64,000 nucleotides of DNA from Enterobacteria phage KhF2, in sequence record KT184314.1. One strand, given 5' to 3'. Positions 1 to 61,475 of this stretch are shown here, piece by piece; the first letter of the stretch is position 1; each line of letters begins with the position of its first letter. Under the pieces are notes generated by a model. It was not told where the DNA came from. It made no database searches and worked only from the letters and a program-made list of their open reading frames with translations. The position numbers and the translations under genes are program-made.

Positions 1-688
1 TATCACGAGCTTTACAAACATCATCAAAACAGACTAATAAGATACCTGATAAGAAACCATTGATATTCGTTTTCAGGTACTCTGCAATAAGAGNNNATTN
101 TTNTNCNNTCATCTGCACAACTTCATCTGCATAAGCTGTAATCTTCGAAATACCTTCATTAATCTTACTAACAGCTTGGTTAGCTAAATCAGAAATAGTA
201 TCAAGACCTTTGTCAATAGCATCTTGTAAGTCACTTAATACATCATTAACGACATCTAGTGCACTGTTAATTGTGTCAATAGCTTTTTGACCATATTCTG
301 TAGCAACGCCCATAATACCACTAAACGGTGTACAGCCAACTTGTTCCCCTGCTGCACCCATAACATTGGAATACCCCTTTGCTACCTGCATACGTGATGA
401 AAACTCATCAATAGACTTTTGACCATAGTCTGTTAAGGTCTTAGTAGTCGCTGTAGTGCTTGTAAGGCTTGTTGTAAAGCTGTTTAGAAGGACTGTTGTA
501 AGTCCAGCAGCAACAAGTTTCTCCTTCATTGTAGGGTCTGTTACAGAGCTAATAGAACTTACAAGTGATGTAGAGGCAGCTACGGTTCCACCGAGAACTG
601 CTGCACCAGTAATAAGGGGATTAGAAAACCCTCTACCGGTTTTTAAGAGATTAAAAATCTCCTTACCTTGTTCTGTCATCTCTTTCAT
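1..688 (-). CDS. partial CDS, hypothetical Ala/Thr/Ser-rich protein (N-terminal part; 3' end lies beyond window start)
   Basis: Continuous minus-strand frame from ATG at 686-688 (MKEMTEQGKEIFNLL...); interrupted by N-run at 94-108; the listed plus-strand ORF 456..701 is its antisense shadow. Confidence 0.4.
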   Translation of the reverse strand, partial: MKEMTEQGKEIFNLLKTGRGFSNPLITGAAVLGGTVAASTSLVSSISSVTDPTMKEKLVAAGLTTVLLNSFTTSLTSTTATTKTLTDYGQKSIDEFSSRMQVAKGYSNVMGAAGEQVGCTPFSGIMGVATEYGQKAIDTINSALDVVNDVLSDLQDAIDKGLDTISDLANQAVSKINEGISKITAYADEVVQMXXXXXXLIAEYLKTNINGFLSGILLVCFDDVCKARD

Positions 689-704
689 TAAGCACCTTTG
701 AAAT

Positions 705-780
705 TGGTAGTCCAGTGGGATTTGAACCCTCTTCTCATGTTTTTCAGACACGCGCTTTAACCATATAAGCTACTTGGACT
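705..780 (-). tRNA. tRNA-Phe (anticodon GAA)
   Basis: Hand-folded cloverleaf; T-loop TTCAAAT; anticodon loop CTGAAAA; CCA encoded. Confidence 0.6.
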
Positions 781-786
781 ATAAAT

Positions 787-862
787 TGGGGTGACCTACG
801 GGATTTGAACCCGTATAGACCATGTTCACAGCATGGGTCATTACCATTTATGATAAGGCCAC
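787..862 (-). tRNA. tRNA-His (anticodon GTG)
   Basis: Anticodon stem CCATG/CATGG with loop CTGTGAA; T-arm CGGG-TTCAAAT-CCCG; CCA encoded. Confidence 0.6.
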
Positions 863-893
863 ATTTAAGGACTCTCGTAAGAATCCTTAGAAG

Positions 894-969
894 TGGCAGC
901 GGCATAAGGATTTGAACCTTAATAGGACAGCTTCAGAGACTGTTGCATTGCCAGTTATGCTATACCGCT
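894..969 (-). tRNA. tRNA-Gln (anticodon CTG)
   Basis: Acceptor AGCGGTA/TGCCGCT, D-stem GCAT/ATGC, anticodon loop CTCTGAA, G73, CCA encoded. Confidence 0.6.
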
Positions 970-974
970 AAATT

Positions 975-1054
975 TGGTACTCCATATCGGATTCGAACCG
1001 ATACATAACACAGATTTTAAGTCTGGCCTCTCTGCCAATTGGAGTAATGGAGCA
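975..1054 (-). tRNA. tRNA-like, anticodon probably TAA (Leu by anticodon), atypical short variable loop
   Basis: T-arm ATCGG-TTCGAAT-CCGAT and CCA present; anticodon loop CTTAAAA on a 4 bp stem; D-arm weak. Confidence 0.35.
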
Positions 1055-1055
1055 T

Positions 1056-1131
1056 TGGCGGGGGATGTTGGAATTGAACCAACTTCTTCGATTTCAAAGA
1101 CCGAGGTTTTAACCTTGTAAACTAATCCCCT
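1056..1131 (-). tRNA. tRNA-Gln (anticodon TTG)
   Basis: Acceptor AGGGGAT/ATCCCCC with G73; D-stem GTTT/AAAC; anticodon stem TCGGT/ATCGA with loop CTTTGAA. Confidence 0.55.
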
Positions 1132-1139
1132 TTAAATCT

Positions 1140-1697
1140 TTACTTTCTCAGTGGATGAATAAAGAATGCCAACATAACTCTTTCCCTTGAGAATGCTCTT
1201 TCTTCTGGGACAACACTTTTTAGTTTCCATCCAATATAAATTCTCCAGTAAAACTGTTTACCAAAGACTTTAATTGATGGGATAAAGGCGAATAATCCCC
1301 AAGCATTACTGTTCCACATTAGGAGATAACCAGTCTGATTATCTTCAGGGTCAGAACTTACGTTGATATTACCTTTCCACTTAGTAACATCTTTTACATC
1401 TCTTCCTAATACATGGTAAGAGAAGTTATAAGCTTTGTTTCTCCAGAGCCATCCGACTCTTTGCATGTAGACGCCTAGTTTACCAATCCATCTAATATTA
1501 GCCCATCTTTTAACGTGACCTTCATCACCATCAATTGGGTTGTCATATGTCTCCATCCATCTGAACCCGAAAGGTAAGCGTCCTTTCTTCTCACTGTAGA
1601 ATGGAACTACAAAAGGTGCTAAGATAACTGCTAAGATTGCTGCAAATGGCTCTAACAAAGCTAAGAAAATCCATGAAACATATTTTAAGTATCTCAT
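1140..1697 (-). CDS. hypothetical membrane protein (185 aa) embedded in tRNA array
   Basis: ORF track; hydrophobic N-terminus; start overlaps stop of upstream ORF (ATGA). Confidence 0.45.
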   Translation of the reverse strand: MRYLKYVSWIFLALLEPFAAILAVILAPFVVPFYSEKKGRLPFGFRWMETYDNPIDGDEGHVKRWANIRWIGKLGVYMQRVGWLWRNKAYNFSYHVLGRDVKDVTKWKGNINVSSDPEDNQTGYLLMWNSNAWGLFAFIPSIKVFGKQFYWRIYIGWKLKSVVPEERAFSRERVMLAFFIHPLRK

Positions 1698-1936
1698 TGT
1701 CTAACCCTCGTAAGGAGGTAAGCATTATTATTTGTTTCTGAGCTTTCTGGTAACATTGTCTCAAAATTGACGCTTTTAAGTTGTCTTCCACCAAAGCAAT
1801 GACCAATAAATCTTTCTACTTTTATTGGGTCGCATTCCCATCCGACTTTCAAGAAAATGTGGGTATCTATAGTGGGAACCCTTACAAACTCAATACTATT
1901 GGGATTTTCATGTTCAACGACGATTAATGTTTGCAT
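1694..1936 (-). CDS. hypothetical protein (80 aa)
   Basis: ORF track; translationally coupled to 1140..1697. Confidence 0.4.
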   Translation of the reverse strand: MQTLIVVEHENPNSIEFVRVPTIDTHIFLKVGWECDPIKVERFIGHCFGGRQLKSVNFETMLPESSETNNNAYLLTRVRQ

Positions 1937-1954
1937 AAATTCCTCTTGCTTATC

Positions 1955-2030
1955 TGGCGCAGGATAAGGGATTCGAACCCCTATTAACAGCTTCGTAGAC
2001 TGTTGCTCTATCCATTTGAACTAATCCTGC
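1955..2030 (-). tRNA. tRNA-Arg (anticodon ACG)
   Basis: Acceptor GCAGGAT/ATCCTGC, anticodon stem ACAGT/GCTGT with loop CTACGAA, T-loop TTCGAAT, CCA encoded. Confidence 0.6.
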
Positions 2031-2035
2031 AAAAT

Positions 2036-2113
2036 TGGTGTTCCAAGACGGATTCGAACCGTCACTAGTACAAGGTTTGAGCTTGCATCCTCTGCCAATT
2101 GGGATACTGGAAC
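2036..2113 (-). tRNA. tRNA with anticodon CAA (Leu by anticodon) but class-I-like short variable loop
   Basis: Acceptor GTTCCAG/TTGGAAC with A73; anticodon stem GCAAG/CTTGT with loop CTCAAAC; only a 6 nt variable region. Confidence 0.45.
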
Positions 2114-2114
2114 A

Positions 2115-2193
2115 TGGTACTCACTAAAGGACTTGAACCTTTTTCTTCATCTTGTAAGGGTGATGTTTTACCATATAAACTAAGCGAGTATGA
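2115..2193 (-). tRNA. tRNA-Val (anticodon TAC)
   Basis: Acceptor ACTCGCT/AGTGAGT, D-stem GTTT/AAAC, anticodon loop CTTACAA, A73, CCA encoded. Confidence 0.55.
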
Positions 2194-2195
2194 AA

Positions 2196-2283
2196 GAGGT
2201 CTGGAGTTGTGCCGCTAACTCAACTCCGTGGAATTTGTTACGGTCTTCAGTTGACTCAAAGCGGTCTTTCACTTGACCTCTGA
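2196..2283. ncRNA. structured RNA candidate / non-canonical tRNA-like element
   Basis: Closing stem GAGGTC...GACCTC plus internal hairpins (GGAGTTG...CAACTCC; CCGT...ACGG); no canonical T-loop found. Confidence 0.25.
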
Positions 2284-2285
2284 AT

Positions 2286-2362
2286 TGGTGCTGCTCACAG
2301 GACTCGAACCTGCATTTCCATCCTTACAAGGGATGTGTAATAGCCAATTATACGAAAGCAGC
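2286..2362 (-). tRNA. tRNA-Thr (anticodon TGT)
   Basis: Anticodon stem CATCC/GGATG with loop CTTGTAA; T-loop TTCGAGT; CCA encoded. Confidence 0.6.
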
Positions 2363-2368
2363 ATTGTT

Positions 2369-2443
2369 TGGAGCATCCAGAGGGAATCGAACCCTCAACC
2401 TCAGTTTGGAAGACTGTAATTTTCCCGTTTAAACTATGGATGC
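2369..2443 (-). tRNA. tRNA-Gly (anticodon TCC)
   Basis: Acceptor GCATCCA/TGGATGC; anticodon loop CTTCCAA; T-arm GAGGG-TTCGATT-CCCTC. Confidence 0.6.
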
Positions 2444-2449
2444 ACTAAT

Positions 2450-2526
2450 TGGTGGAGAAGCAGGGAATTGAACCCTGTACTTAAGTTTGCAAAACTTATG
2501 TTTTAACCATGTAAACTACATCCCCA
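2450..2526 (-). tRNA. tRNA-Ala (anticodon TGC)
   Basis: G3:U70 wobble pair in acceptor stem (Ala identity element); anticodon stem TAAGT/ACTTA with loop TTTGCAA. Confidence 0.6.
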
Positions 2527-2531
2527 ATGTC

Positions 2532-2607
2532 TGGTACAGGTGGAGGGAATTGAACCCATCGTCTTACTGATTAAGAGTCAGCCGCATAACCATTTTGCTA
2601 CACCTGC
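2532..2607 (-). tRNA. tRNA-Lys (anticodon CTT)
   Basis: Acceptor GCAGGTG/CACCTGT; anticodon stem GCTGA/TCAGT with loop CTCTTAA; T-stem only 3 clean pairs. Confidence 0.5.
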
Positions 2608-2614
2608 ATTAATT

Positions 2615-2692
2615 TGGTAGGAGACAAGGGATTCGAACCCTCAAACACCAACTTCTAAGGATGGTAGGTTTACCAATTACCATCAATCTCCC
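2615..2692 (-). tRNA. tRNA with anticodon TAG (Leu by anticodon), short variable loop
   Basis: T-arm GAGGG-TTCGAAT-CCCTT; anticodon stem CCATC/GTTGG (one mismatch) with loop CTTAGAA; A73. Confidence 0.4.
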
Positions 2693-2948
2693 ATTAAATC
2701 TTTTTAGAGAACTTCTAAGAACCTGAGCAACAAGGTTCCACAACAAGCGACTAATAACCTTAGAAGCCCTCTAAAAAGACCTAAATAGGTCTTTGCATAG
2801 TCTTGTTTAATCCGGTGACTAGAACCTTTGGAGAGCTTGATATTATCTCTTCTCCGTGACACCTACTAGGTGCTTTGACAGTGTACGACAATACACGAGG
2901 GATAAACCGACAATGCGAACAAGCATGGACGGAGTAAATCTTATTAGG

Positions 2949-3036
2949 CGGTAAGTAAAGGAGTCGAACCCTCACCGTATCTCTACAGTGGCAACTGTTT
3001 TCAAGACAGTTTGGCTACCATTAGCCGCTACCTACC
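2949..3036 (-). tRNA. tRNA-Ser (anticodon TGA), class II with long variable arm
   Basis: 88 nt; acceptor GGTAGGT/ACTTACC, G73; anticodon stem ACTGT/ACAGT with loop CTTGAAA; long extra arm; CCA not encoded. Confidence 0.55.
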
Positions 3037-3049
3037 CCTAATAAGACTT

Positions 3050-3132
3050 TGGCATGGGACGGAGGAGTTGAACCCCTTTGAAACGGTTTTGGAGGCCGTT
3101 GCTCATGCCTTAGAGTCTTAACATCGTCCCAT
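3050..3132 (-). tRNA. tRNA-like, possible Trp (anticodon CCA), atypical 5' region
   Basis: Good T-arm and acceptor ATGGGAC/GTCCCAT with G73; anticodon-like stem-loop ACGGC-CTCCAAA-ACCGT; about 7 extra nt between acceptor and D-arm. Confidence 0.3.
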
Positions 3133-3274
3133 ATTATAATTCGAAGCTTACCCTGTTATCTCAACACTGTCAAGCTTCTTCTCAGATTATTTACATGTTC
3201 TGGAAAACATGAGATACAGACCACCTCCCTACAGGAAGACCCGCTAAGGCCGTCTAAGTAATCTGCTAACTATT

Positions 3275-3356
3275 TGGTCGAGGCGGCAGGACTCGAACCC
3301 GCATACTCCACTTACTCGGTTAACGGCGGTTTAGAAGACCGCTGAGATACGCCCCG
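3275..3356 (-). tRNA. tRNA-like, possible Arg (anticodon TCT), atypical architecture
   Basis: Acceptor CGGGGCG/CGCCTCG, T-arm GCGGG-TTCGAGT-CCTGC, perfect stem-loop GCGGT-CTTCTAA-ACCGC; D-arm not identifiable, 23 nt between anticodon arm and T-arm. Confidence 0.3.
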
Positions 3357-3604
3357 TAATTATCTTTAAAGACTCTCTTAGAAAGCCCTTAAAGATGCCC
3401 ACCTTATTAATCATACCGTGGGCGAGTACGCCAAATTCTTTAATGAGGGATTGGAAGACCTCACTGGTGTTTAGCCTATCAAGCTACTGCCAGAAAAACA
3501 TTGTCGTTTGCATTTATTTTAAATTTGCAAAATAGACGCTACGCAACGAAAACTAAGGTTACTATAAAGCAGTCACATCTCAATGTCAACAACTTTATTG
3601 AAAT

Positions 3605-3680
3605 TGGTACTGGTAGGTGGAATCGAACCACCGATGTTCCCTTATCAGGGGAGTGTTATAACCTTCTTAACTATACCAGC
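3605..3680 (-). tRNA. tRNA-Ile (anticodon GAT)
   Basis: Acceptor GCTGGTA/TACCAGT; T-arm GGTGG-TTCGATT-CCACC; anticodon loop CTGATAA. Confidence 0.55.
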
Positions 3681-3681
3681 T

Positions 3682-3758
3682 TGGAGGTTCAGATGGGAAT
3701 CGAACCCACATTCATAGGGCTTATGAGACCCTTGCATTACCTTATCTGCGACTGAACC
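3682..3758 (-). tRNA. tRNA-Met (anticodon CAT; elongator, initiator or Ile2 not distinguished)
   Basis: Acceptor GGTTCAG/CTGAACC; anticodon stem AGGGT/GCCCT with loop CTCATAA. Confidence 0.55.
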
Positions 3759-3762
3759 ATAT

Positions 3763-3838
3763 TGGTAGAAGTGGAGGGATTCGAACCCATCGCCTGTCAG
3801 ATTAAAAGTCTGCCGCATCACCATTCTGCTACACTTCC
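3763..3838 (-). tRNA. tRNA-Lys (anticodon TTT)
   Basis: Acceptor GGAAGTG/CACTTCT; anticodon stem CAGA/TCTG with loop CTTTTAA. Confidence 0.5.
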
Positions 3839-4035
3839 ATTAAATTATCTTTGTAGATAAGCTACCCAGACTTGCTTAAGGTCTGTAGCGATGTGCCTTG
3901 TTGGGTTTAAATCTAGAATTTACCCTTTCACCCTTTGTGGTCGCATACTCACAGGTAAGCTTAATAACTTATCTACAAAGATAATTACCAGACCGTTGTT
4001 TATCATCTTAAGTGCTACCATTACACCAACTCGAC

Positions 4036-4063
4036 ATCTGCCGAGTGAAGGAATCGAACCTTC
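4036..4063 (-). pseudogene. tRNA 3' fragment (T-arm plus acceptor 3' strand without a matching 5' half)
   Basis: GAAGG-TTCGATT-CCTTC T-arm followed by ACTCGGC-A; no complementary 5' acceptor strand within 100 nt. Confidence 0.25.
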
Positions 4064-4270
4064 GCCTTTTCTTTACCGGAGAAATAGATTGTTTAAGTTT
4101 TGCTGTAAACGGTCTTCTGTAAATTTGTTGAGCCAGACCAAGTTTTAAATTTTTTCAAAATTAAATTGGCTTGAAATTTTCATACGTTCTTGATGTATTT
4201 GGTCTTCTGCTCCTTTAAAGAATACTCGTAAGAACTCTTTAAGGGAGGGGCTAAATAGCCCTCTCAAAAT

Positions 4271-4347
4271 TGGCGGCTACGATGAGACTTGAACTCACAT
4301 CATCTCCCGTGACAGGGGAGTATTTTCTCCAGTTAAACTACATAGCC
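4271..4347 (-). tRNA. tRNA-Asp (anticodon GTC)
   Basis: Acceptor GGCTATG/CGTAGCC with G73; anticodon stem CTCCC/GGGAG with loop CTGTCAC. Confidence 0.6.
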
Positions 4348-4352
4348 TTTAT

Positions 4353-4440
4353 TGGTGTGCCGTGTAGGAGTCGAACCTACCGAGTCTCAATGACAAGGGA
4401 TTTACAGTCCCCACCGCTACCATCTACGGGATAACGACAC
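4353..4440 (-). tRNA. tRNA-Tyr (anticodon GTA), class II
   Basis: 88 nt; anticodon loop CTGTAAA; long variable arm; T-arm GTAGG-TTCGACT-CCTAC. Confidence 0.6.
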
Positions 4441-4448
4441 ATTTAATT

Positions 4449-4525
4449 TGGCGGTTAGTCAGGGATTCGAACCCTGTGCCATTCGCTTAACAGGCGACCG
4501 CACATACCTTATGTGCTTCCTAACC
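4449..4525 (-). tRNA. tRNA-Asn (anticodon GTT)
   Basis: D-arm GCAC-ATAAGGTAT-GTGC; anticodon loop CTGTTAA; G73. Confidence 0.55.
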
Positions 4526-4602
4526 TTAATACATTGCCAGACCGTGTTTTTTCTTTTATCCGCAAAAAGTATTTTGTTGCTGAATACGGTCTTCTGCAAA
4601 AT

Positions 4603-4679
4603 TGGAGGCGGGTGCAGGAGTCGAACCTGCCGATACCATGCTAATGAGACATGTGAGACGCCCTTTCTCTATACCCGCA
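4603..4679 (-). tRNA. tRNA, anticodon probably CAT (second Met/Ile2-type), fold imperfect
   Basis: T-arm GCAGG-TTCGACT-CCTGC; candidate anticodon stem CATGT/GCATG with loop CTCATTA (unusual T37). Confidence 0.4.
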
Positions 4680-4768
4680 ATTCTTAATGACCAGACCAAA
4701 TATCTTCTTTGTCCGATTAACTTTCAGATGAGTAGATTAAGTTTGCTGTAATTGGTCTTCTGTCAAAA

Positions 4769-4847
4769 CTGGCGTTCCAGAAGGGATTTGAACCCTCAGA
4801 TATCCACTTTGAAAGAGTGGTGACTTTACCATTTTGTCTACTGGAAC
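4769..4847 (-). tRNA. tRNA-Glu (anticodon TTC)
   Basis: Acceptor GTTCCAG/CTGGAAC with G73; anticodon stem CCACT/AGTGG with loop CTTTCAA. Confidence 0.55.
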
Positions 4848-4854
4848 ATTAATT

Positions 4855-4930
4855 TGGTCTCTGTTGGAGGACTTGAACCTCCGGCCTTACCGCCCCAAAC
4901 GGAACGCTCTACCAAGCTGAGCTAAACAGA
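4855..4930 (-). tRNA. tRNA-Pro (anticodon TGG)
   Basis: Canonical D-arm AGCTCAGCTTGGTAGAGC; anticodon loop TTTGGGG; T-arm GGAGG-TTCAAGT-CCTCC. Confidence 0.6.
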
Positions 4931-5096
4931 GATAAACTTTTCAAACTCTATGTAACAACTTTAACATTATTTTTTAGTGGTTGTCAAGAACTTTTTTAAA
5001 ATATTTTTCAGTATCTTAGAAAAGCTCTCATTTCGTTTCTATGTAGAACATATTAAAGGGTATTAAACACATTGTCAATACCCTTTTTAAAACTTT

Positions 5097-6512
5097 TTAC
5101 CAGATGTAACGGTCAATCATTACTGCTTTGAGCATTACGCTGATTGGGTCAAACTTCTCACCACCAAGCAGAGCTTTTAAAGTGGCTGGAGAGAAACCAG
5201 ATACCATTGCTACACCGTTATCCTTAACAGACACTTCGCAAGTACCACTACGGTTTGCTAAGTACCAGAATACCAGTTGTGGCATTTCGTATCCAGCTTT
5301 TTTGTACTTACTACGAATTGCTTCAAAGTTTGTACGACCATTTGCACCGTCAACCTGATTGAACTCCATATCAGAGAAGATGATAAGCTTACTTGGCATA
5401 TCTTTCTGAGTCAAGTTGTTTCTCTTACCTGTCTCAAGGATGCGGTCAAAAGCTGCTTGTAAGTTAGTTGAACCGTATTCAACATGTCGCATTACTTGAC
5501 GGTGACGGTTCTTTAAATCGCCACTCAGTTCGATGAAATGAGGGTTTGTTGAATAAACCATTAACTCGTTCTTAAAGCAACCTGTATTGCGTTCTGCTAC
5601 ATACAAGGCAAGTGATACACCAATATCAAGGGCAGTAATTGAGCCAAAATTCACCCAAGACATTGAACTTGAAACATCAGACATACATAGAATGTTTTCA
5701 CCCTCTGCCATCCAGTTTGGTAGTGCTTTCCACTGCTCATTAGCAACATCTGCATTACCATACTTAACAGATTTAATCACATCGTATGGGTAAACAGCAC
5801 CAGCATTAATCTTAGCCTCACCCTTTGATAATGACTCGATGTAAGCTTTGTAGCGTTCTCCATCTTTACGGTTAAACAGTTTTTGGTAACGTGCAGCAGC
5901 AAGTGAAGGAATCTTACTGTAGTCAATCTTACCAAACTCATTAGCAGAGATTTTTTGCTCAACTGTATCAGATAGTGCAGACAACAGTGTGCGGTACTCT
6001 TTCTCACTTAAGTTTGCAAACTTGCAGAAACGTTTTACAAACTGCTTATGACGTGGTTTGACTCGTGGTAACCACTTAGCTGCCAAACCTGCTGTTGCAG
6101 GGTCTAGTAATGCTGCTTCTAAATGTTTGAAGGCATCTGTCTCGAAACGAGTACCTACGAAGATTTTGAAGTCATCAAAACGACCAAGTTCTGCAATCTT
6201 ATCCATAATACGAAGAACCTGTGTAGGCTCTAAAACTTTGTCTTCGATTGCTTGAAGTAAAACAGTTCGGAAAGCTTTACGCTCACCCATACCTTCTCGT
6301 ACATCTCGCATATGCAGTAAAATACGAACTGCAACATCAACACCCTCACGCAAAGCTTTGTAGAACAGGTCTGGTAAGATTTCTACATTGCTACGGCTTG
6401 AACCAGCAGCTTTGTAAAAGTCTACCAGAGCAGACATTGATGAAGTATGGTTTACAGCACCATTTTCAGTTCGACCTGCATGAAGGTGCGCATGTTTAAA
6501 TAATTCGCTCAT
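5097..6512 (-). CDS. vWA-like domain protein (putative MIDAS motif D-x-S-x-S)
   Basis: 471 aa ORF; motif LCMSDVSSSM resembles a von Willebrand A metal-ion site; no other recognisable motif. Confidence 0.4.
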   Translation of the reverse strand: MSELFKHAHLHAGRTENGAVNHTSSMSALVDFYKAAGSSRSNVEILPDLFYKALREGVDVAVRILLHMRDVREGMGERKAFRTVLLQAIEDKVLEPTQVLRIMDKIAELGRFDDFKIFVGTRFETDAFKHLEAALLDPATAGLAAKWLPRVKPRHKQFVKRFCKFANLSEKEYRTLLSALSDTVEQKISANEFGKIDYSKIPSLAAARYQKLFNRKDGERYKAYIESLSKGEAKINAGAVYPYDVIKSVKYGNADVANEQWKALPNWMAEGENILCMSDVSSSMSWVNFGSITALDIGVSLALYVAERNTGCFKNELMVYSTNPHFIELSGDLKNRHRQVMRHVEYGSTNLQAAFDRILETGKRNNLTQKDMPSKLIIFSDMEFNQVDGANGRTNFEAIRSKYKKAGYEMPQLVFWYLANRSGTCEVSVKDNGVAMVSGFSPATLKALLGGEKFDPISVMLKAVMIDRYIW

Positions 6513-6594
6513 ATTTTACTCTCTTCTCTCATTTTGTTTGTTGATGTGACAGACTTTAGAGCAACTTTGTAGAGTCTGTCAACACCTTTTAAAA

Positions 6595-6966
6595 TTATTT
6601 TTTGAGGGTTGCAACAGCAGAGAACGTTGGTTTGTTATCTGTCTGAGACTGACCGCCGTTATCAGGGGTCTTCTTAGTGTCTGCTGCAATTGCTTTCATC
6701 TCACCTGCTGAGTGAGTCATGATAGTTTTACCGACCTCAATCATACTCTTGATGGTTACGTCATCTGTGTTTAACCCGAACTCTGCAAGCTTAGCAGCAT
6801 CCCTTGTAACAATCGCTTCAAATAACTTTGCAGCAAACTCAGCAGAATTGTCAATGGTCAGTTGAGCTTTTACAAGTGAGCTTTTGTTACGAGAGCCTTT
6901 TGGTCTTCCAGATGGGTTTCCAGACTGGCCTTTTTTAAACTGGCCTTTGTTTGTTCTGTTTTTCAT
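6595..6966 (-). CDS. hypothetical protein with N-terminal basic GNPSGRPKG motif
   Basis: ORF track; motif KGQSGNPSGRPKGSRN. Confidence 0.5.
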   Translation of the reverse strand: MKNRTNKGQFKKGQSGNPSGRPKGSRNKSSLVKAQLTIDNSAEFAAKLFEAIVTRDAAKLAEFGLNTDDVTIKSMIEVGKTIMTHSAGEMKAIAADTKKTPDNGGQSQTDNKPTFSAVATLKK

Positions 6967-7193
6967 TGGTATGCCTCTTATAAGACCTCTTAAAAGGCTT
7001 TTAAGATAAAAGATAGATATCCAGAAAGATATCTGTTTAAATAGCCTTTTTAGAGGAACCTTTTAAGTTATCTTCTAAGTATTTATAAGCCTACACCTTG
7101 TCAAGTACTTTGTCAACAACTTTTTAACTTGCAATAGTTCTTGACTTGTTGTATGGATTACTGTACCATCTTAGTTAAAGCTGTAGGTCTGCC

Positions 7194-7376
7194 TTGTTCT
7201 ACAAAGGAGACTTAATGAGAAAATCAAATAAACCGAAGAAAGGTAAGAATACCAATCACTGTAAGGAATCAAAAAGGGTAGAGTTAATCTACTATTCATC
7301 CTCTGAAATTGGTCTGTACCTGTTCTTTCAAAATTACAGAAGACAAGAGGATTATCTATGTGTAGTTCCCAATTAG
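7194..7376 (+). CDS. hypothetical small basic protein
   Basis: ORF track; AGGAG RBS upstream. Confidence 0.3.
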   Translation: MFYKGDLMRKSNKPKKGKNTNHCKESKRVELIYYSSSEIGLYLFFQNYRRQEDYLCVVPN

Positions 7377-7591
7377 AAATCGCAGATATTATAGATTTAT
7401 ATCAAACTGCAAAGAGTCATGGCTATATAACCTCAATTGGAAAGAATAGTCACTATGATGCTTTGACTGGAATGTATTTCAGGGCAATGGCTCAATCTAG
7501 TGAACAACACTTAATGGTTTCTTCCAGTGAGTTTACTTCGTTTCTCTATTGCAGCAAAATTATAAATCGCAGGAGAACTGAAAAATGTTAA
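7358..7591 (+). CDS. hypothetical protein
   Basis: ORF track; GAGG RBS. Confidence 0.3.
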   Translation: MCSSQLEIADIIDLYQTAKSHGYITSIGKNSHYDALTGMYFRAMAQSSEQHLMVSSSEFTSFLYCSKIINRRRTEKC

Positions 7592-8175
7592 CAGTAAGTT
7601 TTAATTACAATAGTGATGGCTCTGTATCAATTAATTCACCATATGCAAATGACCTTCTTAAAGAGCTAGTCAATCAGTGTGATAGAGGTCTTCACTATGT
7701 TCAAAATTCTTTTAAACAGAAGACTATTGCTAATAACTTGATGCGTGTAACAGTGACGCCATCGAATCCAAATTATGACTTTGATAGTGAAAGTCCGTAC
7801 TCATTAGTTGCGCTTGGAGAGAGCAGCCAATTCAAACTTGTTTGCCACGACTCAGAAACATTTCTTAAGGTATTTTCCAACCTTATCCATAATAATAAGT
7901 ACAGCTACGTTGATGGTAGTGTAAACTTCTATCCAGCAAACTATACATGTTTGTTGGTTGATAATATGAGAAAAAGTAAGCAAGAACCTACAGAAATTTC
8001 ATTTGATGTGAACTCTAGTCCAGACGCAGAAACAAGTAAGAACTTCGATATGAGTTACGCATTGTCACTCAGTAAGAAATCCGAGTTCATTGATTATGTC
8101 AATGGATTTGGTTTTAAGTTTGATGAGAGTATGAATCTTAAAAAACTTAAGAACCTACTTAAGACCAAAGCTTAA
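7585..8175 (+). CDS. hypothetical protein
   Basis: ORF track; AGGAGA RBS; followed by hairpin GGGGCtgatGCCCC. Confidence 0.5.
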   Translation: MLTVSFNYNSDGSVSINSPYANDLLKELVNQCDRGLHYVQNSFKQKTIANNLMRVTVTPSNPNYDFDSESPYSLVALGESSQFKLVCHDSETFLKVFSNLIHNNKYSYVDGSVNFYPANYTCLLVDNMRKSKQEPTEISFDVNSSPDAETSKNFDMSYALSLSKKSEFIDYVNGFGFKFDESMNLKKLKNLLKTKA

Positions 8176-48509: not shown

Positions 48510-50463
48510 TTAATACAGGTGGAATCGTTGAGCTTTGACGTTGTTCTTCAGTATAGACTTCACCAGTCTCACGGTCAAACACTTCATCCTCATAATGAGG
48601 CAAAGAGTCATCATAATGGTCTTCAGCTTCACCAATACCAAACTGTTGACGAATATTTTCTGCTGCGCCATCAATGTCAACACCACATCCAGAAGCTTTA
48701 ATAAGACGTCCTGTATCTGGATTATACCAAGTATGACCAGCAATACCTGTTGACTTACCATGACGACGACACTTAGTTAACTTGATTTTTGTCAAGTTTT
48801 TCTTAACTGGGTCTGGGTCAACCTTGTTACGCATTAACAGAATGTTATTCATAGAAATCTGAAAATACGCACCAGAACCTTTGATATCCTCTTCAGAGAT
48901 ATCTCCACCTTCAGAGTTAGCTTTCTGACCACCTGCACTCTTACGAACGTGACATACGTTTACCTGCGCATACTGGTAGCGTTTGCAACGACGCAATAGC
49001 TCAGACAAAACTTCTTCTTCATCCGTATCAGAACGTGACAGGGCTAACGTGATAGGGTCAAGAATGATAATCTTACAGTCTAAACTGTTAACAAGATAGT
49101 CAACAAACTCTAGCAGGTTATCTTGGTCAATTGCCCCTTGATGGTCAACGATATGGATACGACGGCCTTTAGATAGTTCTGCGTGTGCTCCTTTTAATTC
49201 ATCCCAATCCCGTTCATCATAAGGAATCTCAGAAATCTGCTTGCTCAGGTGGATTGCACAGAGCATCTCCATCAACTCTTCATAGGTATCTTCTACAGGA
49301 ATTACACCGATATTATAATCAGTTTCTTTCCAAGCTGAGTAAATCATCTCACGAGTGTAAGCTGACTTACCTACTGAAGATGGTGCTGCAATAGTTGTAA
49401 TCTCACCTAAACCGTAACCACCATAAGTCAGCCTGTTCAAATCTCCGAAAGATTCTGGGAAAGGAATCAATGGAATCTGACCACGATTCTTCATTGCCTC
49501 AAAACCATCTGCGAAGTTCTTGATACCAGCAGGGCAGTAACGGGGTGCATTGTAGATACGCTGCTTAAATCCTTCCAGAACTGTATCTTTTTCTTTATAG
49601 AACTTTGTCCACCATTCGTTAAGGTCTTTTACACCTTCTGGATACTGGAATAAACGAACCTTCTCAATAGGTAGGATACCAGCAGCCTCTTTAGTGGCTT
49701 TAGCACCTGCTTCATCGTTATCAAAGCACAAGTAAATCTCATCAAATGATGTAATGTACTGATAGTTATCCTTGATAGACTTGATGTTTGCACCTGATGG
49801 AACAGATACGTGACAGTAATTCTTACGACGAGATTTGTCCTTAATCGCAAGAGAAGTCATATAGATTGCTGTCGCACATTCCATCTCACCTTCCCAGATG
49901 AATAGACGGTTACCACCTTCTGGAGCAATCCATGAACCGAACATTGCCAGTTCACCTTTAATGTCTCCAACACCACCAGAAAAGTCTTTTAACTTACCTC
50001 GTAGGTGCTCTTTTGGATGGTCTTCTGGGTAACGGTGACGAACACGATATCCAACATGCTCTAGCTTGCCATCTTCATTGCGTTTGTAAGTTGGGTAGAA
50101 ATGCGCGTCAATTTCACCATCACTGTCAATGTCAACCTTGATACCCAAACGCTCAAGAACTTTTGCAGGAATCTTCCTGTCTTTCAAGTCCATCGCTTCA
50201 AGGTTTTCTTTCACATCGTCTAAATCCATTCCACGGAAAGTACGGTTTTTATTGTCTGAACCAGTAGAATAAGTGCTCACGATTTGTCCTTTATCAAAAT
50301 CCCACTCTGGGAAACCTTTGTTACAACTAAAGCAAGTCATTGAATAAGAACCATCGTCATGATGATAGATTGAACCAGCATCTGATGAACCACAACGTGG
50401 ACATGCGCAATGACCAACAAACTGACCAGCCTCTTTCAATTTACGACCTTTAGACATTAGCAC
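48472..50463 (-). CDS. bifunctional DNA primase-helicase (zinc-ribbon + TOPRIM + DnaB-like helicase)
   Basis: Zn ribbon CxxC (HCACPRCGSSD ... CFSCN), TOPRIM-like LCFDNDEAG, Walker A APSSVGKS; 663 aa. Confidence 0.75.
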   Translation of the reverse strand: MLMSKGRKLKEAGQFVGHCACPRCGSSDAGSIYHHDDGSYSMTCFSCNKGFPEWDFDKGQIVSTYSTGSDNKNRTFRGMDLDDVKENLEAMDLKDRKIPAKVLERLGIKVDIDSDGEIDAHFYPTYKRNEDGKLEHVGYRVRHRYPEDHPKEHLRGKLKDFSGGVGDIKGELAMFGSWIAPEGGNRLFIWEGEMECATAIYMTSLAIKDKSRRKNYCHVSVPSGANIKSIKDNYQYITSFDEIYLCFDNDEAGAKATKEAAGILPIEKVRLFQYPEGVKDLNEWWTKFYKEKDTVLEGFKQRIYNAPRYCPAGIKNFADGFEAMKNRGQIPLIPFPESFGDLNRLTYGGYGLGEITTIAAPSSVGKSAYTREMIYSAWKETDYNIGVIPVEDTYEELMEMLCAIHLSKQISEIPYDERDWDELKGAHAELSKGRRIHIVDHQGAIDQDNLLEFVDYLVNSLDCKIIILDPITLALSRSDTDEEEVLSELLRRCKRYQYAQVNVCHVRKSAGGQKANSEGGDISEEDIKGSGAYFQISMNNILLMRNKVDPDPVKKNLTKIKLTKCRRHGKSTGIAGHTWYNPDTGRLIKASGCGVDIDGAAENIRQQFGIGEAEDHYDDSLPHYEDEVFDRETGEVYTEEQRQSSTIPPVLSEDADDCPFETE

Positions 50464-61115: not shown

Positions 61116-61475
61116 ATGAAACGTGAAAACATTATCCACTCTGAAAACTTTGCATTAGGCTTTTATGGTGTACCTACTCACCTTGAAAAGTATTATGGTG
61201 TGAAGATTCTCTCCAATCTCATTATGGCTTACAAAGATGGTAAGATTAAGCATACTGAGAAGAAACGTGTCATGGGCTATATGGCTGTAGGTTCAGCAAT
61301 CTCAAACATTAAGCTGGAAACAACTAGCAGCCAGATTGTAAAAGACCACTTCATCAAAGAGCTTTACCACAACCTTGATGGTGTAGATGTTCAGGCTGTT
61401 TGGCTGGATGTTGATGGTCATAACTACACAAGTTTTGTTTTCAAAAATGATGACATTAAGTGCTTGTTCCCATAA
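61116..61475 (+). CDS. hypothetical protein
   Basis: ORF track. Confidence 0.45.
   Translation: MKRENIIHSENFALGFYGVPTHLEKYYGVKILSNLIMAYKDGKIKHTEKKRVMGYMAVGSAISNIKLETTSSQIVKDHFIKELYHNLDGVDVQAVWLDVDGHNYTSFVFKNDDIKCLFP

Follow-up and report, generated by a model that had tools for sequence, protein, structure and literature searches.

Four copies of a repeated element in the transfer RNA (tRNA) array of Enterobacteria phage KhF2 quite probably encode small, non-coding, Y-RNA-like partner RNAs of a phage Ro60-like protein, whose gene lies immediately upstream on the same strand. The elements, referred to as A to D, and a fifth structured RNA, E, to which this reading probably extends, were found within a stretch of 64,000 nucleotides (nt) of the phage genome (KT184314.1), hereafter the window. 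Four observations carry the reading: the repeat, its covarying structure, the Ro60 fold of the neighbouring gene product, and a strand- and position-specific association of the element with homologous genes across unrelated phages. From these we infer that A–E are transcribed and processed, that they bind the protein, and that they have a role in infection. Ro60–Y RNA particles are conserved from bacteria to humans, and their roles in bacteria and phages are poorly understood.

A repeated element in the tRNA array

Felixounavirus (Felix O1-type) phages are 95–98% identical to the region, and positions 3000–5100 are matched by 274 phage records. ARAGORN locates 23 tRNA genes at 705–4931. All of them are on the minus strand, and the spacer elements are therefore to be read on this strand, as 5'-CAGAAGACC...CAGCAA...GGUCUGG-3'. 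The sequence CAGAAGACC (reverse complement of GGTCTTCTG) occurs on the minus strand at 4111–4119, 4201–4209, 4588–4596, and 4754–4762, which gives four copies in 650 nt. A fifth, isolated copy at 50019–50027 (minus strand) is probably due to chance. Only 0.5 copies are expected per 64 kb, and none of 100 shuffles reached five or more. The combined pattern AGAAGACC-N40-70-GGTCTGG has three matches versus 0.00 expected. TTGCTG is present at 4100–4105, 4577–4582, and 4743–4748, and the fourth copy of the motif (4190–4195) reads TTGATG here and TTGCTG, that is CAGCAA in the RNA, in relatives. By both shuffling and pattern counting, the repeat is real and far above chance.

The initial annotation had described CCAGACC, GTTGCTG, and GGTCTG in three long spacers, and these motifs lie where it placed them. 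The spacers do carry the element, but there are four copies instead of three. The first spacer, given as 4064–4270, in fact extends over 3839–4270 and accommodates two full copies (C and D) as well as the structured RNA E. A spacer start at 4064 splits D mid-element; the T-arm-like sequence of D had probably been taken for a tRNA.

A common handle closes the four elements

RNAfold predicts one closing architecture for all four copies, which is referred to as the handle. The hairpin earlier proposed from CAGACC and GGTCTG does form, but it is longer than supposed, having a helix of 7–8 bp plus a 4-bp outer helix across an AGA/G internal loop. Specifically, the outer helix is UGAC/GUCA in A, UUGC/GCAA in B, GAGC/GCUC in C, and UUAC/GUAA in D, and its three variable pairs are complementary in every copy (UGA/UCA, UUG/CAA, GAG/CUC, and UUA/UAA). 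The internal loop is asymmetric, with AGA facing a single G. The inner helix conforms to AGACC(N2-3)/(N2-3)GGUCU, and its inner pairs alternate between CGU:ACG and CAA:UUG. It is followed by two or three unpaired nucleotides (UUA, AUU, AUA, or UA) and then by CAGCAA. The interiors of A–D are unrelated to one another, and those of A and B are swapped in close relatives while the handle stays constant.

Element A (about 78 nt; 4688–4765, minus strand) is located between tRNA-Glu and tRNA-Met. In its RNAfold structure, the outer helix and the AGA/G loop are followed by an AGACCAA/UUGGUCU helix, UUA-CAGCAA (motif at 4743–4748), and a variable interior; the element is found also in Mooglevirus and in the related locus L089. 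Element B (about 66 nt; 4534–4599, minus strand), between tRNA-Met and tRNA-Asn, folds in the same manner with an AGACCGU/ACGGUCU helix and AUU-CAGCAA (4577–4582). In its close relatives (L004–L006), the handle is unchanged and the interior is different. Element C (about 83 nt; 4130–4212, minus strand) has an AGACCAA/UUGGUCU helix and is defined by its RNAfold structure, a pattern match, and orthologues in relatives. Element D (about 138 nt; 3985–4122, minus strand) is the largest, and its minimum-energy fold has a AGACCGUU/AACGGUCU helix followed by UA-CAGCAA (4100–4105); it is also matched by the covariance model R2 described below. A comparison with the tRNA regions of relatives, which the initial annotation had recommended, shows that the positions of A–D are fixed across Felixounavirus and Mooglevirus.

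Alignment, folding, and covariance analysis had likewise been proposed, and they reveal a common fold in all four copies with covarying pairs. In an alignment of 14 sequences picked partly by pairing, compensatory changes occur in seven of seven handle pairs and four of five T-stem pairs, and 90.9% of the alignment cells are paired, compared with 32–47% when the partners are slid. A replicate alignment of 25 model matches, free of pairing-based choice, has 93.4% of cells paired and compensatory change in 14 of 16 pairs; none of 500 shuffles reaches the observed values, and slid partners give 29–48%. RNAalifold on MAFFT alignments did not recover the acceptor-like and D stems of the tRNA-like interior owing to misalignment. 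These two stems rest on single-sequence folds, model-based alignment, and orthologue comparison. The first base pairs of the handle tend to agree within a genome, being AGACC in all Ounavirinae copies and UGGAC in all three copies of mycobacteriophage Snenia. This agreement fits sequence-specific recognition by a cognate protein; recent duplication could also explain it.

The upstream gene encodes a Ro60-like protein

The gene at 5097–6512 (minus strand) encodes a protein of 471 residues; 166 nt separate the end of this gene from the first tRNA gene in the array. The elements are 335–1100 nt downstream of its stop codon on the same strand. At E ≤ 0.01, Pfam assigns only DUF7788 and DUF2828 to the protein, with no TROVE domain (PF05731), and a phmmer search against PDB sequences returned nothing at E ≤ 1. 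An AlphaFold2 model built with 35 homologues has a predicted local distance difference test (pLDDT) score of 86.8 and a predicted template modelling (pTM) score of 0.87. When the model was compared with the PDB by Foldseek, the best 12 matches were all full-length alignments to Ro60/TROVE proteins, with probability 1.00, E = 3e-8 to 1.4e-6, and a query-normalised TM-score of 0.39–0.65; isolated vWA domains ranked after them. The top matches include Xenopus and human Ro60, Deinococcus Rsr, and the Ro60 of Thermus phage phiLo. As modelled, the protein is composed of a HEAT-repeat Ro60 ring and a C-terminal vWA domain. The MIDAS (metal-ion-dependent adhesion site) motif of the vWA domain (DxSxS ... 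T ... D) is formed by Asp279, Ser281, Ser283, Thr349, and Asp381, which are invariant in the 35 homologues. RefSeq labels the orthologues 'RNA-binding protein', and mycobacteriophage homologues with 32–34% identity are labelled 'Ro-like RNA binding protein'.

The homologue of Listeria phage CKA15 was detected in purified virions with 20 peptides (PMC12282133). The Ro60-like protein may be packaged and delivered together with the DNA. In Pectobacterium phage CBB, the homologue is annotated as a 'structural protein'.

The handle accompanies DUF2828 genes in other phages

We fetched 80 viral contigs that encode relatives of the Ro60-like protein, 75 of which are only 39–45% identical. In these distant loci, 'orphan' T arms occurring on the gene's strand only led to RNAs built on the plan of D: a helix and 3 nt lead to C(A/C)GCAA and a T arm, after which come a closed hairpin whose sequence is unrelated, a D arm, and the helix's 3' strand with a G behind it. 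In the 75 distant loci, a stringent pattern (AGR helix of ≥ 6 bp, 2–4 nt, C[AC]GCAA ... YCU, G) has 60 matches on the gene's strand and three on the opposite one. Enrichment there is confined to the generalised handle and does not extend to the exact Felix-type motif AGAAGACC. The interiors fall into short (47–70 nt) and tRNA-like (104–136 nt) classes, a class with a CCUUUCUGGAGGGGAAAGCAAAAACUCGCC module, and several of 157–210 nt. The CCUUUCUGGAGGGGAAAGCAAAAACUCGCC class (L007:5272–5375, L008:3129–3237, L011:149–281, L015:1261–1378, and L028:5730–5833) matches no Rfam family. Several RNAs may stand beside one gene. Snenia has three tandem handle RNAs directly after its Ro-like gene, the middle one being tRNA-like; Listeria phage List-36 has three just upstream of its DUF2828 gene; Campylobacter phage CP30A has two; and at least two lie between the gene and the tRNA array of Klebsiella phage FBKp34. 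In CKA15, very abundant unannotated transcripts arise within 2 kb upstream of the homologous gene (PMC12282133), and a phage related to CKA15 carries three handle RNAs at the matching position.

Because circularity was to be avoided, two covariance models were built without any Ounavirinae sequence. R1 derives from 35 short handle RNAs of distant phages and specifies the 7-bp helix only, and R2 derives from 12 tRNA-like RNAs of distant phages. On both strands of the window (128 kb), B is the best R1 match at 32.3 bits (E = 4.8e-5); A comes next with 31.9 bits (E = 6.1e-5), and C takes fourth place with 18.6 bits (E = 0.088). The third-ranked match, at 61278–61338 on the plus strand (23.4 bits), lies inside a 119-codon open reading frame (61116–61475) of a tightly packed operon; being internal to a reading frame and weakly scored, it was taken as a probable chance match and rejected. 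For R2, the best match is D, covered from end to end with 47.1 bits (E = 3.4e-8), and the runners-up, at no more than 24.8 bits, are junctions of adjacent tRNAs.

Across 84 loci (947 kb), R1 has 90 matches at E ≤ 0.1, all on the gene's strand, including 55 outside the training set. No more than 500 nt separates 73 of the 90 from the gene, a zone that contains 9.8% of the non-gene bases. As a replicate, we scanned 80 untouched loci from bacterial genome and metagenome-assembled genome (MAG) assemblies. The 68 R1 and 25 R2 matches obtained share the gene's strand without exception, and most of them lie just upstream of the gene. Over these 164 other DUF2828 loci, 158 of 158 R1 matches are therefore on the gene's strand. 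No Rfam family was found to cover the handle RNAs in scans of the window (1–7000 at E ≤ 1; 3830–4280 at E ≤ 10) or of 14 related loci. Of the possibilities named in the initial annotation, that of small transcribed RNAs is favoured by the covarying structure, the independent covariance models, and the strand and position tie to the Ro60-like gene; the elements are accordingly predicted to be transcribed.

The same annotation had also considered processing signals. Read in this way, the elements would be cis punctuation of the tRNA precursor, i.e. hairpins that guide or block RNase E, RNase III, and 3' exonucleases and are then degraded. Their placement agrees with such a function: they sit exactly between tRNA genes, beginning 3–6 nt after a CCA end and stopping 4–8 nt before the next tRNA, with a common (A/G)UUUUG after the upstream CCA. 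However, most tRNA junctions of the array are only 1–8 nt long and lack such an element, and many loci devoid of tRNA genes within about 6 kb have the same handle next to DUF2828 genes (e.g. L009, L012, L014, L016, L031, L040, L042, L058, and L062). Moreover, a cutting signal has no need of a conserved single-stranded motif or of lineage-specific interiors of 20–200 nt, one of them a full tRNA mimic. We regard punctuation as improbable.

The distant loci bear on a second account as well, namely that the handle is a cis site through which the Ro60-like protein autoregulates its own mRNA or operon. In many of them a handle RNA is found 7–60 nt upstream or 23–60 nt downstream of the gene and could belong to an untranslated region. 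In the window, in contrast, the elements follow the stop codon only after 335–1100 nt, behind two promoter-like sites and two tRNA genes, and there are up to five copies with different interiors. Furthermore, yrlA and yrlB are co-transcribed with rsr and yet give free RNAs (established knowledge, Chen et al., 2014). Autoregulation is hence an unlikely explanation.

Element D is a probable, circularly permuted tRNA mimic

Downstream of its 5' handle strand, element D contains an anticodon-like hairpin (4068–4084; UUUCU CCGGUAA AGAAA) and a T arm (4047–4063; GAAGG UUCGAUU CCUUC), then a closed acceptor-like hairpin (4029–4046; ACUCGGC AGAU GUCGAGU), whose 7-bp stem is capped by AGAU, and a D arm (4012–4026; GUGU AAUGGUA GCAC), all four in the minimum-energy fold. 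In this fold, the interior of D is a tRNA-like domain in circular permutation, whose T loop and D loop are canonical and which lacks a free acceptor end. In D orthologues from Felixounavirus, Mooglevirus, and a relative of 63% identity, the acceptor-like stem covaries, with ACUCGGC/GUCGAGU giving way to ACCCUUC/GAAGGGU and ACACG/CGUGU. The 'anticodon' loop has a C at position 33 and varies, being CCGGUAA here versus CUUAUAA in close relatives, which argues against decoding. ARAGORN calls no tRNA between 3839 and 4270, and the Rfam tRNA model (RF00005) matches D only partially, with 22 bits against a gathering score of 29, spanning just the anticodon-like and T arms.

The region comprising C, D, and E is conserved in 251 phage GenBank records, mostly without annotation. 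A few records describe part of it as a 131-nt 'tRNA-Thr GGT'. In Escherichia phage REP5 (L091, 801–931), this feature spans parts of C and D, and it is an annotation artefact arising from the tRNA-like domain of D.

Non-permuted counterparts with CCA ends exist in other phages (L026:7895–8015 and 8025–8137; L027:4278–4390; L088:5503–5616, the last from FBKp34 and annotated as a 114-nt tRNA-Asp). In these tRNA-like genes, the handle separates the D arm from the anticodon arm; it consists of a capped hairpin and UUA-CAGCA and forms an insertion of roughly 40 nt at position 26. The non-permuted genes and the D-type RNA are circular permutations of each other.

These features bring up the alternative that D is a real circularly permuted tRNA gene whose paired ends form a processing or ligation junction, or that A–D are tRNA relics, as the initial annotation had suggested in speaking of decayed tRNA remnants. 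Permuted tRNA genes are known in the red alga Cyanidioschyzon. D does possess a T arm, a D arm, a 7-bp acceptor-like stem, and an anticodon-like hairpin, some GenBank records list a tRNA here, and CCA-ended non-permuted relatives are found in L026, L027, and L088. However, a 4-nt loop caps the acceptor-like stem, which lacks a CCA, the 'anticodon' loop with its C33 differs between close relatives, and both ARAGORN and the Rfam tRNA model refuse D. The non-permuted relatives retain the handle, which marks it as a kept feature and not as a removed junction. Only D has a tRNA-derived domain, and this domain is permuted, conserved, and covarying; A, B, and C have no tRNA-like part. Of the remnant idea, the tRNA origin of D's domain thus stands and decay does not, and a functional permuted tRNA gene is very unlikely.

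Comparison with known Y RNAs

YrlA, which is present in Salmonella and Mycobacterium among others, is a bacterial Y RNA that mimics a tRNA and is bound by Rsr, an orthologue of Ro60; Chen et al. (2014, PMC4201824) located it close to TROVE-annotated genes of 254 bacterial species and 22 phages. The RNAs described here resemble YrlA in being encoded beside a Ro60-type gene on the same strand and in having 5' and 3' ends that pair. D in addition has its parts in the same order, i.e. 5' handle, V hairpin, T arm, closed acceptor-like stem (AS), D arm, and 3' handle (PMC4201824), with canonical residues in the T loop (UUCGAUU) and the D loop (AAUGGUA). They differ in that YrlA carries GNCGAA(N)G in the 5' strand of its closing helix, whereas here the helix is followed by UUA-CAGCAA. 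Moreover, the partner here is a DUF2828/DUF7788 protein without a Pfam TROVE match, and the RNAs lie within a tRNA array. The Rfam YrlA model (RF02553) scores the Snenia RNA, whose handle likewise has CAGCAA, at 39.3 bits, below its gathering score of 69; it covers only the T, AS, and D arms and marks the closing helix as non-pairing. The RNAs in the window do not match the sequence definitions of Y RNA and YrlA; they have a different docking motif and are paired with the DUF2828 branch of Ro60-like proteins.

Elements A, B, and C match a shorter type, represented by YrlB, Deinococcus Yrn1/2, metazoan Y RNAs, and Yrl1/Yrl2 of Thermus phage phiLo (PMC12135203). The Ro60 of phiLo binds two phage Y-like RNAs and the host PNPase (PMC12135203). 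Common to this type and to A–C are a terminal helix, which binds Ro60 in the known cases, and a variable inner module, which there tethers factors such as PNPase, as well as the presence of several paralogous RNAs per genome. The docking-helix signature differs, and so do the tRNA array context and the presumed processing by tRNA enzymes. By analogy with these systems, we infer that A–D act like Y RNAs and D like YrlA.

Small stable RNAs of unknown function are also present in the tRNA cluster of T4, where they are called species 1 and 2 (rnaD and rnaC). The likeness is that of structured non-tRNA RNAs co-transcribed and co-processed with phage tRNAs. T4 is not known to encode a Ro60-like protein.

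A further precedent concerns the Felixounavirus Bas63. Its Ro60-like gp130, encoded directly upstream of tRNA genes, counters the Ppl defence, and the PhageMaP preprint that reports this speculates that some annotated Bas63 tRNA genes are Y RNAs, naming none (10.1101/2024.10.10.617714). Genus, gene position, and Ro60 resemblance are shared with the 471-residue protein, and from the preprint's description the two proteins are presumed to be orthologues. The candidates presented here differ in being located in spacers and not in annotated tRNA genes, in that only one is tRNA-like, and in having a defined common handle. A literature search on DUF2828/DUF7788, phage YrlA, and Felixounavirus Ro60 found no paper identifying these elements or the CAGCAA handle.

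Several points weigh against A–D being Y-RNA-like partners of the Ro60-like protein. The handle, which reads CAGA-AGACCNN-UUA-CAGCAA, lacks the canonical motif for Ro60 binding (GGUCCGA / GNCGAA(N)G / CGAA); a GGCGAAG in D (4061–4067) is the 5' side of the T stem, where Mooglevirus HP1 has GAGAGAAGG. The Rfam YrlA model has no match at E ≤ 10 in 3830–4280 or at E ≤ 1 in 1–7000. Element C carries CAUCAA at 4190–4195 where relatives have CAGCAA, a G-to-U change. The z-scores of the single elements A–D in RNAfold are modest (-1.4 to -2.0). The selection by pairing makes the covariation in the 14-sequence alignment partly circular, and the replicate alignment is fitted to its model. Among the 84 viral and annotated-phage loci, 28 (including KVP40) have no R1 match, and a similar share of the 80 genome loci has none, so the pairing of handle and gene is not universal or the handle diverges. 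Finally, discrete RNAs of 60–140 nt bound by the protein are a prediction.

Least plausible, and extremely improbable, is that the elements are miniature mobile DNA or footprints of homing endonucleases with CAGAAGACC/GGTCTGG as terminal inverted repeats: the inverted-repeat ends, the variable interiors, and the HNH homing endonuclease genes at varying sites of the same tRNA/non-coding RNA array in the relatives heid, Alf5, mio, SP22, and BPS15Q2 would suit it, but the arms show covariation and not conservation at the DNA level, CAGCAA is present on one side only, the R1 matches all share the strand of the DUF2828 gene, a bias not expected from mobility of DNA, and the positions of A–D do not move between Felixounavirus and Mooglevirus.

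Proposed mechanism and significance

Two sigma-70-like promoter matches from a consensus scan lie on the minus strand upstream of tRNA-Pro, at 5078–5050 (TTGACA-17-TAATAT) and 4987–4958 (TTGACA-18-TAAAGT). Both are pattern matches only. No terminator-like site (G+C-rich hairpin plus U run) was found on the minus strand from 4931 to 3839. Since the promoters precede tRNA-Pro and no such site comes before 3839, A–E would be co-transcribed with eight tRNAs from promoters at about 5078 and 4987. Release of the elements would then fall to the enzymes trimming the neighbouring tRNAs, with RNase P cutting at the next tRNA 4–8 nt past each element and the 3' trimming of the preceding tRNA ending 3–6 nt ahead of it. 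The paired ends and the bound protein may stabilise the RNAs. The handle, consisting of the outer helix closed by C-G, the AGA/G loop, the AGACC.../...GGUCU helix, and the single-stranded UUA-CAGCAA, would dock on the ring-shaped protein, leaving the variable interior to serve as effector module, adaptor, or decoy. D would display a tRNA elbow, with intact T and D loops and a capped acceptor, and could engage or tether tRNA-binding host factors. The likely outcome would be counter-defence or control of RNA metabolism early in infection.

More speculatively, the handle may belong to a modular RNA-display system common in phages. In such a system, a Ro60-like ring, packaged into the virion in at least some phages, would be loaded with genome-specific decoy or adaptor RNAs, including permuted and non-permuted tRNA mimics, and would neutralise defences that sense or cut tRNA or nucleic acids, such as Ppl. 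We hold this extension to be possible and rather doubtful; if true, the assembly would be an RNA-programmed counter-defence particle instead of an RNA quality-control factor.

The elements provide the Ro60-like counter-defence protein of Felix O1-type phages with concrete and testable candidate RNA partners. They also define a new putative docking motif, namely a helix starting AGR/YCU with a G after it on the 3' side and UUA-CAGCAA on the 5' side. Next to DUF2828 genes, this motif picks out Y-like RNAs in Felixounavirus, Mooglevirus, Klebsiella, Campylobacter, Listeria, mycobacterial, and many uncultured phages. Such RNAs are missed by current Rfam models, and the annotations at their positions are blank or odd tRNAs. 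The handle-bearing tRNA mimics, being circular permutations of each other, illustrate clearly how a tRNA gene can give rise to a Y RNA.

Element E and other features of the region

Element E (144 nt; 3843–3986, minus strand) is an inverted repeat with a 22-bp closing stem, for which RNAfold gives -47 kcal/mol and z = -6.45. Its inner mini-hairpin CAGAC-CUUAAGCAA-GUCUG (3865–3885) resembles a handle without an interior; in Mooglevirus and L089, covariation is seen in this hairpin as well as in the long stem. E is tentatively assigned to the same RNA system as A–D. Two conserved hairpins, also found as an inverted repeat, are located just 5' of C (4213–4264, minus strand; GAGGGCU.../...AGCCCCUC and CCUUAAAGAG.../...UUCUUUAAAGG). 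They are kept in eight of eight aligned relatives, with a compensatory change from A-U to G-C in L002 and L006.

Three further ideas about the elements were tried and rejected. A plus-strand promoter with TTGCTG as its -35 box would have 14 nt to any -10-like hexamer, and the scan found no plus-strand promoter. A kink-turn at the AGA/G loop is incompatible with a non-bulged strand of a single G and no tandem G-A pairs. A self-cleaving ribozyme does not agree with interiors of about 20 to 200 nt that have no common core.

In Listeria phage List-36 (L083), a ROOL-like RNA (91.5 bits versus a gathering score of 99.1), the three handle RNAs, the DUF2828 gene, and a gene for an RtcB-type ligase form one co-oriented block (1926–2477, 3116–3389, and 6310–7521), whose arrangement recalls the bacterial rsr-yrlBA-rtcBA operon. 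Uncultured phage contigs with DUF2828 genes also contain a two-piece (permuted) tmRNA gene (L027:1317–1767) and a group I intron (L017:11696–11922).

Elsewhere in the array, a tRNA-Arg(UCU)-like gene at 3278–3356 (minus strand) is missed by ARAGORN and matched by the Rfam tRNA model with 31.7 bits; in phages Sf14 and REP5 it is annotated as tRNA-Arg TCT. Between this gene and a strong promoter match at 3589, about 250 nt (3357–3604, minus strand) are non-coding and show weak, sub-threshold matches of the tmRNA type.

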